Shown here: positions 1 to 6,000 of the stretch, one piece after another
How the letters are laid out: every line of letters begins with the position of its first letter
Position numbering within the stretch: position 1 is the stretch's first letter
Virus record (IMG/VR): IMGVR_UViG_2579779049_000031
From: a virus
Taxonomy: Duplodnaviria > Heunggongvirae > Uroviricota > Caudoviricetes
Strand: one strand, 5' to 3'
DNA: 8,322 bases
Program-made: the position numbers

Positions 1-3000
1 ATATGGCTTACCGCCTCCTTCACCATCTGTTCAAGCATCGGACGCACATCATCCGGGGTGAGACTTTTACCGTCTGCCGGCTGCGGAATATTTGCGACCG
101 CATCATTCACCGCCTTCTGCAGTACTTCCGGATCATAGTCACGACCGTCGCGCGGAACAGGGATATGGCTTACCGCCTCCTTCACCATCTGTTCAAGCAT
201 CGGACGCACATCATCCGGGGTGAGACTTTTGCCGTCCGCCGGTACCGGAATATTCGCAACCGCATCATTCACCGCCTGCTTCAGTACTTCCGGATCATAA
301 TCACGACCGTCACGCGGAGCAGGGATATGGCTTACAGCCTCTTTCACCATCTGCTCAAGCATCGGACGCACATCATCGGGGGTGATACTTTTGCCGTCCG
401 CCGGTACCGGAATATTCGCAACCGCATCATTCACCGCCTGCTGCAGTACATCCGGATCATAATCACGACCATCACGCGGTACCGGAATGGTCCCCACAGC
501 GTCATCCACCATCGCCTGCAGAACCGGATGTACCTCATCCACCGTCACATGCTTCTGTAATACCGCCGACAGGGAAGCCAGTTTCTCTTCAAACGCTTGT
601 GCCTGCGCGGCCATCTTCCCCTCAAATGTGCGCTGTAAATCCGCCAGCACCGTGGAGAATTCTTCGCCCAGTGCACGAATAATGGACAGTTCCCGTTCCG
701 TCATTTTCTCAGTATCCCCCTGAACATCGCTTTCACTGCATCATGCTCTGTTTCACTGATTGCCTTATTACCGTCAGATGCGCCGTCAGGCAGTTGTGCT
801 GAAACTGTTTTCCCGGCCGACGCGAACGGGTCCTCACGGGCATCACGACGGGACAGCGCCTCCAGACTGTAGTTCTGCTGCTGAAGATACAGTGCATCAC
901 CGCCGGCAAGGGGCGGCAGGGTCTCACGTTTACGGGCCTCATTGGGCGTGAGAAGCGTATTTTTCACCGATTCACCCAGTGTTTTCATGCGCCGTTCGCT
1001 GTCCATTCTCAGCAGCGTGGTGACGTCAAACTCCGTGCTCTCGTTTTCCCCCGTTTCCAGCGCCTCATCCAGTAACAGCTCAATGGACTCAATCAGCGTC
1101 TGCAGACACTGGGAATAATACTGCTGCTCCAGCGCCTCCACGTTGTCACTGGAAGGCGGGTGGCCAACGCCAATCTTGTAGGCCGGGACACGGAACACCG
1201 AACAGACAATTTCAGCCGTCATTTTCAGTTGTTCCACCGTCTGCGCATCCACCGGTGAAAACGTCGTGGGGCTGTATTTTGCCCCGTTGCTCAGTATGGC
1301 CGTCTTCCCGGCATTTTCGCCCGTATATCCGCTGTCCCAGTTCCCCTTCAGTTTTTTCGCGTTTTCTTCCGTAATACTGCCGGGGACCTCAATCACGCCT
1401 GATGGTCGCCCGCCATTTCTGAAAAAATACGTCGAATTTGCCTGAATATGATGCCCCTGCATGGCGGCCAGTCCTGCGGCATACACCGGCGGCAGCCCCA
1501 CAAGCGGATGAAAAAAACAGTTAAAACGGTCGTGGATCACCTCCCGGGCAGGCACCGTCACCGACTCTGTGATCCCACAGTTCCGGTCCGGCGTGATGCG
1601 ATAGAACACGTCGCCGTCATCCGCCACCAGAGGTTCAACCCGGTTCCAGTCCAGAATACGCAGTTCTTTGATCTGCCCCCGGGGGTTGCGGATTTTCAGC
1701 ACCACCGTATTGCCGTGACGCAATTTGGAATTCAGCCACAGTTCAAAAAACTGGATGCGATTCTGCTGCGCATTAGGACGACGACAGAGACGGGCAGTAT
1801 CTCCCTGCCGCTTTTCCCGGCGTATCCCATGCGCATCCGTCTGCATCAGGCGAAGCCGCATTTTGGCAATATCCTGGGATATCAGCGAAATGCATGAAAA
1901 CACCGCGTGAAAGGACAAAACGGTTTCCGGATCGGCTTTCACACCCTGCTGCCAGGCACCGGCAAAAGGCTCAGCCACCGCCTGAAACAGGGACCGCCAG
2001 CCCACTTCTCTTACGTCACGTCCTGATTTCTGGTTTTTTCGGGTTCGCCGCAAAAGGTTCCACATTCGCCATGCTCCGCATCACGTTTCTTTTTCTGACC
2101 TGCCGGACGTCGCGCTGTGATGTACTCCGCCTTCCCCAGGCGAACCAGCACCTCCGCACACGGCTGTGCCACATCACGGATATCCCCGGCCCGGGCATCA
2201 TGCGTGCCCTGCAGATACTGGATTTTTGCCATCTGTTACTGCGGGAAGCTCGCGCCTCCCGCCCTCCTCATCAGACTCAGCCACCGGACGCAGTTCCGTA
2301 GTTCACACCGGTGATCACCGCCACTGCCGCGGTACGGCGACGACGCCAGTTGATCCAGCGCTCCGCACGGATGGCCACGCTGCCGGTCTGAAACATGGAG
2401 ACCAGTTCCACCGGTGACGGTGTGCTGCTGTCGCTGGTCGGTTCAGACTGCATCTCCAGTGACGCTTCACGGGACATATCCACCGCCACACCGCCGTCAT
2501 CAGCCAGATAAATATCCGGTGCATTCACCAGTACCAGCTGGTCACCCACATACTGGGAGACAATCACCGGCAGCCCCTGGAAGGTCCCGCCCAGCAGGGT
2601 CATGTCCGGGTATTCTTTCTGACCCAGCGCATTTTTACGCATGGACAGCGCCAGGGCATTGGTGCTGGACATCAGCCAGACCGCACCGGTGGGCTGCAGG
2701 TTTGCTGCCACAAACTGTCCAAACGCCGCCTCTGCATCCGCATCCGGGTTACCGCTTGATGCCGTGCCCTTCACATCATGGGTGATGGACGCCGGGGAGA
2801 CATCCGCCACCGCCGCTTTTTTCGGGTCCACAAAGTCTGTGTCCAGACGCGCCACCACCGCTTCCGCCAGCGCATTACGGACCAGTGCATCAGCAGCCGG
2901 ACTGGAAAAACGGATCAATTCTTCCGTCAGTACCGCAATGGCCGACACTTTCGCATGACTGAAGGTGATGGATTCAAAATCAAACTTCGTCAGGGGTCTG

Positions 3001-6000
3001 GCCTTACCCTCACCCACCCAGCCGGCAGCACCACCGGACACCTGGGCATGCACGCGGATATTGAACGGCACCTGACGAAGTGCAGGGATCCCGCCCTGAC
3101 CAAATCGCCCGATAATGGTCTGCGGACGCAGGTAATCAATAAAGTCCTGCGCATATTCCTGGTATTCAGACAGGCTGCCTGCCCACTGCGGGTCCGTGGT
3201 GGTCCCTGCCCCCACCGCCGATTTCAGGACATGATGCAGACGGCTGTCATCCGGATACTGACGACGGGCCACTTCCAGGGCTTCAGAGCGGACACCTTTA
3301 GCCGCGGCCAGTGATTTGGCAAAGCGGGCGAAACCAATCCCCTTCTCCAGTTTCTGCTCAACACGGATCACCGGCGCTGAAGCCACCGTGGCCACATTCC
3401 CGTTACCGGCCTGTTTCACCGGCTGTGCCGTGGCGGCCTTACTGGTTTCCAGTTCACGCAGACGCTTCAGGTGCGCATCCACCTGACGGATTTCCGCTGC
3501 GGTGTTGTCGTAGTGCTCTTCCTCTTCCACATCCAGTGTGCGGCCTTCCTCTGCGGCTTTGTTCATGATCTCCTCAAGGGAGGCTGCCAGCGCCGCACGC
3601 TTGTTTTCAAAACTTTTAATCTGTTCACCAGTATTCATTGCTGACTTTTCCTTATGAAAAGAGGTTATTGACTGTGCCGAAGCGCCGGCAGAAGATGCGA
3701 TTTTCACCACCGGTTTCCGGTTGCCGGACGCGGCAGAAAACGGGCGGTCGAAATATTTAATGGTCCGGATGGTGCATTCCGCATTCGCGGGCACGGTGAC
3801 GGCAGACACCTCCATCAGCTCCCAGCGCAGAAAATGCAGTCCGCCTCCGTCCAGATAAGTGTATTCATGGGGCCGGAAGCCCACAGAAAGCCCCCTGACC
3901 AGCCCGGTCTTAATGGCAGCCCAGGCCTCATCCAGCCGGGCTGCCATCTGGGAGGGCATCCCCGGCTCCGGCTTCACCAGCATTGCCGTGATTTCCAGCC
4001 CTTCCCTGCCCCGACGCACCGTACACTGGCCTACCGGGCGGGAATGGTCATGCTGCCAGAGAAACGGGATCGCACTGCCGAACTCCGCCCCCTCCGGCTC
4101 CAGGATGTCACCATCCCGATCCGGAGAAGGCGTTGACGCAATCCCGGTGATCACCCGTTCATCCTCACTGAAGGATTTCACCGTCAGCAGGGAACAGGCC
4201 CGTTTAAGAGTCACATCAGCCTCCTGAAAATAAAAAAACCGCCGGAGCGGTTCGTGATGGTTACAGTGTGAACAGGGTTATATGAAAAAAACCGCATATT
4301 CTTTCTTTTTCGGTTCCGGGTTGAGGGACATCAGGGAGACCGCATTGAACAGCGCCATCAGCGGGTCAATTTTTCCCCGTCCACTGGCCTGTTTGGTGAT
4401 AAGAATGGCGTTACCTTTAGGCTCCACCCGGGCATTGCCGACACACCAGGCCATCAGGGGCTGGTCACCGTGAATCAGCACCCCTTCAGCCAGTTTGCGC
4501 TCGGTGGTTTTGATGGCCCCACCCAGTTTCCAGCCCTGGCTTATCCCCACCACAATTCCTTCAGGGATCCCGGCTTCCGCCAGTGAATCCAGAATCTGCC
4601 CCACCCCTGACGGGTCAATACCGATATGGTCCAGTAACTCAGCCTCATGAATGCGACGCACATATTCCGCCACTTCCGCCGTGTCATCCCCGACACGCCG
4701 GACAATGGTCATATCTCCACAGGCAACAAGATCCTGAAACCGGGACGCCTCGCTCTTCCGTCGGACCACCGCGGTTTCATGCGCCCAGGCATGGCCCCAG
4801 CCCAGCCATTCGCGGGTCTCCCGGTCACGCCCAATCACATACATCCCCAGCAGATCATCCAGCCCTCCGCCGTCAATCCCCACCGTCACCACATCAGCGC
4901 GCTGCAGGATATCGTCCAGGCTGACGCGCCTGCCCTGCTGCTCCCAGAAATCCGCCCCTGCCCAGCGGTCAGAACGCAGGGCAAGACCAATTTCCACATT
5001 GGCGTGTTTTGACATGAAACCGCGGAAAGTCTCTTCCCCGGCTTCCCGGGCTTTACGATACTCCCGGTACAGAAAGGCCTCATCCACCGAATAACCGAGA
5101 TTCGGGTTAACCATGGCGAGGTTTTCCATCAGCAGGTGCTCACCGCTCTCCACCATTTCAGGAGGATGCTCAAAAATCACCGGCAGAAAGTGCGGATCAT
5201 GAATTTTGCCGTCACGGACATCCCGGGCGTACTGCAGTTTCTGCCTGAACACCCCGGCAGGCGGTTCATTCGACTGGGTGGTTGTGTACACCACAAACCC
5301 TTCCGGACGTGAAGCCAGCCCGCCGATGGCTTCACGTAACATGTCCTCCGCTTTGTACTGCTTGCCAAACAGCCACAGTTCATCAATCAGTGTCCCCACG
5401 GACTTGATACCGGACACCGTATTCGGATCGGCTGCCACCACCTTCAGGGTGGTGTCCGTCACCCGATGGGTGATGGTCCGGATATGTGTCTGCACCTGAC
5501 AGAGGTCATCCAGATCATCGTCCCGTCGTACCATATCCCTGGCAGGGTTGAAGGCGTTAGCCGCCACCTCCACGGTCGGGGCCAGAATGGTGTAGCCCGC
5601 CGCCTGCCGCCAGTTCAGTAACAGCGCCGTCATCATGATCCCCGCGGCCAGCGTGGACTTCGAGTTTTTCTTGGGGATAAGGATAAAAACTTCCTTGATA
5701 TGGCGTACACCGGTCTGCGCATCGTAGGAGCCAAACAGGGCCGCCACCAGGTCAAACACCCACTGTGCGCAGGACTCCCCGAACGTCGGGCTGCCCGGTG
5801 CATCCACAATCCGCAGTTGTTTAAAAATCGCCAGGGCATGTGCGGCCTGCTCCGGATAAATCGGAGCCGGAATAATCGACAGCCCCTTTTTCAGGCGCTC
5901 TGCCCAGTCCGGACATGCCGTGCTCCACACAGGTATCATCCGTTGCCCTCATTATCATTATTCACCACCAGGCGGGGTGGTGGTGGCACCGCAAAACGGT

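Follow-up and report, generated by a model that had tools for sequence, protein, structure and literature searches.

Prohead protease and major capsid protein are the products of separate genes in phage HK97, where gp4 is the protease (MEROPS S78), gp5 is the capsid protein with its N-terminal delta domain, and the gene order is terL, portal, protease, capsid. Nested protease/scaffold genes are known from lambda (C/Nu3) and HSV-1 (herpes simplex virus type 1; UL26/UL26.5), and use of the internal start has been shown experimentally in both. The locus described here is a head-gene module in a stretch of 8,322 nucleotides (nt) from a tailed virus (Caudoviricetes; IMG/VR record IMGVR_UViG_2579779049_000031). 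The whole stretch is referred to as the window. It contains a single open reading frame (ORF) of 645 amino acids (aa) which encodes protease, linker and capsid protein and lies before the portal gene, whereas in HK97 two genes lie after it.

The gp17/gp17.5 pair of the archaeal Haloferax virus HFTV1 is also a nested protease/scaffold pair, as shown by ribosome profiling (bioRxiv 10.64898/2026.09.13.751334). The likeness of the 645-aa ORF to the lambda, HSV-1 and HFTV1 systems lies in an N-terminal protease within a long ORF, and would extend to an in-frame internal start that yields the assembly-directing C-terminal part and to a protease that reaches the procapsid through the assembly interface of the scaffold. 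There the nested product is scaffold alone, with the capsid protein encoded by a gene of its own, whereas here it would be the scaffold-plus-capsid protein itself, from an internal start predicted from the sequence.

Protease-capsid fusions are an established annotation class. A 'major capsid and protease fusion protein' is annotated in actinobacteriophage clusters AN, AU, EE and AW. In the Arthrobacter phages of cluster AN the order is given as the canonical one, with terminase and portal followed by the capsid-protease fusion (PMC6606914), whereas the fusion of the present lineage precedes the portal. A three-in-one protease-scaffold-capsid gene was argued for gp5 of Pseudomonas phage MD8, which is described as joining a lambda C-like protease to a Mu-like capsid protein (PMC8508860). 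That gene also unites protease, scaffold and capsid, but the two families it draws on are not those found here. NCBIfam NF045541 ('prohead protease/major capsid protein fusion protein') has the same architecture but is a different family, and membership of the 645-aa protein was rejected (51.3 bits against a cut-off of 525, aa 49-267 only). The PHROG 617 genes of long-tailed Shiga toxin (Stx)-converting phages (1717, Stx2a_WGPS2) are the same gene, of which the window holds a further copy, and the module there has 95-99% nucleotide identity and identical order. Mentions of the fusion in Stx phages in the searchable literature were at annotation level only, with no experimental study of the family.

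Protease and capsid genes between terL and portal

The locus is best explained as the head-assembly core of a widespread HK97-like prophage or phage lineage in which the protease and capsid genes lie between terL and portal. Its main genes are as follows.

4278-5939, minus strand: terL, 553-aa ORF, directly upstream of the fusion ORF; PF03354 and PF20441, phrog_9 and phrog_7622.
2277-4214, minus strand: protease-capsid fusion, 645-aa ORF, GTG start; Pfam, NCBIfam and PHROG matches.
701-2065, minus strand: HK97-type portal, 454-aa ORF; TIGR01537 and PF04860.

An earlier note on this DNA had described the 645-aa and 454-aa ORFs, and its coordinates and lengths were exact. The span that it marked, 701-4214, comprises exactly the fusion ORF, a 73-aa ORF and the portal gene. 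The note read the 645-aa ORF as a single gene joining protease, linker and capsid between terL and portal, and this reading held: matches to PF04586, PF05065 and TIGR01554 were all above their cut-offs.

The fusion ORF starts at GTG 4214. An AGGAGG lies 5 nt before it (4225-4220, minus strand) and has a duplex energy of -10.3 kcal/mol with the anti-Shine-Dalgarno (anti-SD) sequence. The ORF is uninterrupted, and full-length homologues of 644-648 aa were found throughout Enterobacterales. The possibility that two genes had been joined by a sequencing frameshift was rejected, as the sequence is identical in independent complete genomes and the fusion is kept across phyla. The ORF is not a frameshift or assembly artefact because it is continuous, has full-length homologues and is fused in 141 of 150 representative proteins. 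It is divided as follows.

3789-4214, minus strand: protease domain, aa 1-142 (S78, HK97 gp4-like).
4052-4050, minus strand: candidate catalytic His55.
3887-3885, minus strand: candidate catalytic Ser110.
3639-3788, minus strand: linker, aa 143-192, hypervariable and predicted to be disordered; predicted local distance difference test score (pLDDT) below 50, with insertions and deletions, the most variable segment of the alignment.
3649-3653, minus strand: internal Shine-Dalgarno (SD)-like AAGGA, 10 nt upstream of the Met193 ATG.
3636-3638, minus strand: in-frame ATG, Met193, predicted start of a 453-aa delta-domain-plus-capsid product.
3429-3638, minus strand: helical hairpin resembling a scaffold, aa 193-262, the counterpart of the delta domain in HK97-type capsid proteins.
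2280-3338, minus strand: HK97-fold major capsid core, aa 293-645.

By curated thresholds and by fold the 645-aa protein belongs to both the S78 protease and the HK97-type capsid families. Peptidase_S78 (PF04586) matched aa 48-151 at 33.5 bits (cut-off 21), so the N-terminal region is a protease, as the earlier note had proposed. Phage_capsid (PF05065) matched aa 386-635 at 55 bits (cut-off 24.2) and TIGR01554 major_cap_HK97 matched aa 204-584 at 80.4 bits (cut-off 27.5). PHROG 617 matched over the full length (E-value 1.9e-258, aa 1-639 against profile positions 7-626 of 626). The equivalog cut-off of TIGR01543 (59) was not reached by the fusion protein, at 44.6. As PF04586 was passed and TIGR01543 was missed, the protein is a member of the S78 family and not an equivalog of HK97 gp4, to which it is distantly related in sequence. 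HK97 chains were absent from the sequence matches of a PDB search with the fusion protein.

An AlphaFold model made without an alignment had a mean pLDDT of 37.6 and was informative for the helical hairpin only. The model was rerun with a 64-sequence alignment and reached a pLDDT of 72. The fusion protein was found to contain an assemblin-like prohead protease fold, and its capsid part the HK97 fold. Candidate catalytic residues were strongly conserved: His55 was kept in all 144 aligned representatives (38-54% identity) and Ser110 in 143 of them, and both were invariant in A2 and A3. Glu135 and Ser137 of the protease domain were likewise invariant. From spacing and motif, His55 and Ser110 are probably equivalent to H65 and S114 of HK97 or to H85 and S140 of T4 gp21.

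The middle of the protein had been described as a coiled-coil or scaffold segment, and here a helical hairpin was predicted confidently. Its helices span aa 195-223 and 229-261, with pLDDT above 90 without the alignment and 77-83 with it. The N-terminus of capsid chain 9gyi_B (residues 3-76) aligned to profile positions 196-271, and position 3 of the TIGR01554 model fell at aa 204. No scaffold gene was present from terL to the connector gene. The segment has the arrangement of a delta domain, an N-terminal helical scaffold before the capsid fold with no separate scaffold gene. A maturation cleavage site would be expected somewhere in aa ~263-340. HK97 itself has a chainmail of Lys-Asn isopeptide bonds with a catalytic Glu; a C-terminal motif was aligned by eye to these HK97 crosslink residues, and its register is ambiguous by one position. 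The proposal that the fusion implies self-processing which frees the mature capsid protein is plausible, the activity being predicted. Overall, the observation of the earlier note was confirmed and its interpretation is supported, and none of the outcomes that the note had listed as refuting it was seen.

To place the module in a wider context, 1.84 billion cluster representatives (50% identity) were searched, and 1,169 matches were obtained at an E-value of 1e-30 or below. The best 150 of these comprised 141 full-length fusions (38-54% identity), seven proteins with capsid only and two with protease only. Eighty related loci were then fetched from one-genome-per-species contigs. Their sources were Gamma-, Alpha- and Betaproteobacteria, together with contigs that carry the labels Binatia, Phycisphaerae, Hydrogenedentota and Vicinamibacterales, among others. 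Wherever the contig reached, the genes lay on one strand in the order terL, protease-capsid, portal, post-portal ORF, head-tail connector. There were no exceptions in the 61 loci in which terL, fusion and portal were found together, and all loci with more than one of these genes detected had the same order. Chance is excluded as the source of the order because it is identical in all 80 related loci.

Separate protease (190-250 aa) and capsid (457-485 aa) genes were found at the same position in eight loci (L055, L069, L070, L071, L073, L075, L076 and L079). The fusion is the common state and the lineage also includes unfused forms. The presence of split genes at the same position indicates that gene order, and not fusion, is the stable defining trait of the lineage. 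The claim that fusion and inverted order together mark a distinct lineage was supported with a qualification: the order was kept in all 80 loci, and the eight split loci belong to the same lineage, which is not defined by fusion. The order terL, protease-capsid, portal is supported as the mark of a distinct and very widespread lineage.

A probable in-frame start at Met193

The reading preferred here, with a probability of roughly 0.55, is that the fusion ORFs of the lineage are nested pairs, encoding a protease-capsid protein and, from an internal start, the capsid protein alone. Under that same joint estimate the fusion would be made in a smaller amount than the free delta-capsid protein, the protease would enter the procapsid as part of a capsid subunit, and the ratio of protease to capsid would depend on how strong each of the two starts is. 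The conservation of the internal start at Met193 suggests that a good part of the capsid protein may be translated free of the protease.

Met193 was invariant in 20 homologues (72-96% identity), although variability along the protein is greatest in the 25 residues that precede it, with insertions and deletions. Sixty-four of the 70 fused loci have a Met/ATG aligned with it. Stand-alone capsid homologues open with 'MNYAEQISAFETKRAA' or 'MNIAEQIAAL' (MNxAEQI...), which matches the internal 'M193-NTGEQIKSFENKRAA' (M193-NTGEQI...). In the eight split loci most capsid genes start at the ATG aligned with Met193, behind the same SD sequence. In L055 and L076, two of these loci, an in-frame stop closes the protease ORF 4-5 codons short of the capsid ATG.

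An SD core (GGAG, GAGG, AGGA or AAGG) was present at positions -16 to -5 in 61 of the 64 fused loci, compared to 12% of other in-frame windows. The mean anti-SD duplex energy at the internal site was -7.1 compared to -2.4 kcal/mol. The residues encoding the SD vary by clade (KG, KE, EG, QG and PKEG) while the purine core is kept, which points to constraint at the nucleotide level. The mRNA is also open at this site. In the window the 60 nt around the Met193 ATG had a folding energy of -6.9 kcal/mol compared to a gene mean of -17.7, among the least structured 2%, and the internal site was in the top 5% least structured in 48 of 64 loci. GC content near the site was 46% compared to 61% for the gene. 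The arrangement is the one expected of a nested pair, in that a conserved in-frame start codon and a candidate ribosome-binding site lie at the edge of the assembly-directing part.

The linker in which this site lies also carries a short motif of its own. The stand-alone proteases of split loci L070, L071, L075 and L076 have a conserved C-terminal '..PFVIRxIxR' tail, and a similar 'KPVVKI' (PVVKI) motif is retained in the linker of fused proteins at aa 167-172. A capsid-targeting peptide has been described at the C-terminus of HK97 gp4. The linker motif may be a remnant of a peptide of this type.

A mechanism can be proposed for the nested arrangement. Loss of the protease stop codon would have allowed protease, linker, delta domain and capsid to be read as one 645-aa ORF. 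Initiation at GTG 4214 would give a 70-kDa protease-linker-delta-capsid fusion, and initiation at Met193 would give delta-capsid alone. Joined through their capsid and delta parts, the two products would assemble together on the portal. As the delta domains would face inward, the tethered protease domains would lie inside the procapsid. The protease would then cut off the linkers and delta domains, its own tether included. The remaining mature capsid protein would be ~35-40 kDa, with its N-terminus in aa ~263-340, and would expand on DNA packaging.

A number of points weigh against this reading. The aligned Met was missing in six of the 70 fused loci. By itself the internal AAGGA of the window (-6.2 kcal/mol) is moderate and unremarkable; the 5' start has a stronger SD (-10.3), and ~13.5% of in-frame positions have an SD at least as strong as the internal one. 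The low-GC unstructured island could be due in part to the Lys/Asn/Thr-rich disordered linker and not to selection for initiation. As the 80 loci share ancestry, the statistics overstate independence and p-values are inflated. No expression, proteomic or N-terminal sequence data for the fusion family were found in the searchable literature. A procapsid in which all subunits carry the protease is physically possible; its internal protein would come by estimate to ~13 MDa, a load comparable to that of the P22 scaffold.

An obligate polyprotein, the model implicit in the earlier note, is the main rival. Here only the 645-aa protein is made, each capsid subunit brings its own protease, and protease, linker and delta domain are removed in cis or in trans. 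It is considered a serious alternative at somewhat worse than even odds. It is favored by the continuity of the ORF, fused in 141 of 150 representative clusters, and by the stronger 5' SD in the window, and an internal ribosome-binding site would be blocked in part by ribosomes coming through from upstream. A Pseudomonas homologue is named by one database source 'Capsid polyprotein'. A polyprotein does not explain, however, why an ATG, an SD core encoded through changing residues and an unstructured low-GC island are kept within a hypervariable linker across genes of 38-76% identity. Nor does it account for the free interconversion of fused and split forms at exactly the Met193 point. Proteases are far fewer than capsid subunits in known HK97-type procapsids, which also counts against it.

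A degenerate remnant, in which a pseudogene-like lost stop in a defective prophage has no role in assembly, is very improbable and effectively refuted: the insertion of IS1203 near the prophage module, a 'frameshifted' call on the adjoining portal and the many defective prophages of enterohaemorrhagic Escherichia coli can be cited for it, but the fused architecture and invariant catalytic candidates are conserved at 38-96% identity in thousands of proteins from many phyla, the fusion is present in deposited genomes of isolate or induced-lysogen phages (Stx phages, Rhizobium phage RHph_X2_26 and Pseudomonas phage vB_PaS_IME307), and the portal 'frameshift' looks like an annotation artefact.

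Portal, post-portal ORF and flanking genes

In the direction of transcription the genes follow the order PerC-family gene, HNH gene, terS, terL, 645-aa ORF, 73-aa ORF, 454-aa ORF and post-portal ORF, according to the ORF list. The features outside terL, fusion and portal are given below.

7502-7816, minus strand: PerC-family regulator; PF06069, E-value 1.5e-42.
7196-7420, plus strand: YlcI/DUF3950 gene, between the PerC-family gene and the HNH gene.
6789-7154, minus strand: HNH endonuclease, just upstream of terS and terL.
5936-6499, minus strand: terS; contains a 27-bp tandem duplication at 6003-6056.
2011-2232, minus strand: 73-aa ORF, phrog_829, function unknown; overlaps the portal start by 55 nt.
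1-704, minus strand: post-portal ORF, N-terminal 234 codons (407 aa in full); runs off the left end.

The 454-aa protein had been taken for the portal, and the identification is secure: TIGR01537 scored 361.9 bits (cut-off 112.05) and PF04860 266.3 bits (cut-off 39.1, E-value 4.6e-79). The 73-aa ORF was without a Pfam match. Small ORFs with a related motif (..Y.G..L..GD.F.A...DA..L..GKAE..) were present at its position in many distant loci, and it looks like a conserved but uncharacterised part of the module.

The post-portal ORF starts at ATG 704, which overlaps the portal stop (ATGA); in L001 the full ORF is at 7781-9004. It is a lineage-specific partner of the head module. Three to four 54-aa tandem repeats were seen in it, corresponding to a 162-bp repeat of 93% identity at window positions 1-479. 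A 185-aa plus-strand ORF at 3-560 with a repeated 'MAYRLLHHLFKHRTHIIRGETF' was rejected as a gene, being the antisense of these repeats. The C-terminal ~90 aa, beyond the window, had a weak CBM_5_12 match, and this domain was found downstream of the portal in 64 of 80 loci. A 'portal protein' label on the post-portal ORF was also rejected. No portal-family match was found for it, and the label comes from profiles built on rare portal fusions. One such fusion is real, a 1243-aa portal/post-portal protein in L016, and phrog_2271 is a fused profile of 859 positions. With the exception of L016, portal and post-portal ORF were separate wherever both were detected, and their ends overlap by a few bases in most loci. 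The Prokaryotic Genome Annotation Pipeline (PGAP) joins the two as a 'frameshifted' pseudogene (window 1-2065; L001 7781-10365; L002 5481-8065), and this flag looks like the artefact mentioned above.

A terminator-like hairpin was present at 4236-4253 (minus strand), with a 7-bp stem GAACCGC/GCGGTTT followed by TTTTTATTTT. Its place is the 63-nt gap that separates the terL stop from the fusion gene's ribosome-binding site. The number of sites in a promoter and terminator scan was not above chance, and the hairpin is notable for its position only. It could modulate expression from terL to capsid or stabilise the mRNA.

The HNH gene lies just before terS and terL, an arrangement typical of cos-packaging HK97-like phages, and an HNH gene was upstream of terL in 28 of 80 related loci. 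GC content drops from 55-61% to 43-46% over 7000-8322, the segment with the PerC-family and YlcI/DUF3950 genes. In the source genome IS1203 lies directly beyond this segment, which looks like cargo (a moron) placed between the lysis and packaging genes.

The locus is an E. coli O111:H8 prophage of the type carrying Shiga toxin genes, and the window showed 100% identity with O111:H8 chromosomes. For the region 701-4214, identity was 100% with both the E. coli 95JB1 chromosome and that of O111:H8 strain 8B. A search of 5,426 complete E. coli genomes found the region in 1,251, and a genome can hold as many as seven copies. The whole window had 95-97% identity to long-tailed Stx1- and Stx2-converting phages (e.g., 1717 and Stx2a_WGPS2, genus Sawaravirus).

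Annotation and capsid assembly in the lineage

As the matching Stx phages carry the gene with an annotation, the element is already in the public record. The gene is annotated there as 'major head protein/prohead protease', 'phage prohead protease' or 'major capsid protein'. The protease-capsid-before-portal layout is real, abundant and already catalogued, and is not a discovery. The residual novelty is the nested translation that we infer, and no statement of an internal start for the fusion family was found in the searchable literature.

In practice the finding matters for annotation. The 645-aa gene goes by several names in PGAP and phage records, as 'major capsid protein', 'prohead protease', 'capsid and scaffold' or 'hypothetical protein', and the post-portal ORF is mislabelled or merged with the portal. 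Roughly one complete E. coli genome in four carries the module, as do named Stx-converting phages. If the nested reading is true, evolution would have a simple way to pass from separate protease and capsid genes to a nested fusion or back, by losing or gaining a single stop codon. The lineage would also have a built-in means to package a controlled number of proteases, which bears on the capsids of Stx phages and on HK97-like assembly. The principle known from lambda C/Nu3 and herpesvirus UL26/UL26.5 would then be extended to the capsid protein itself.

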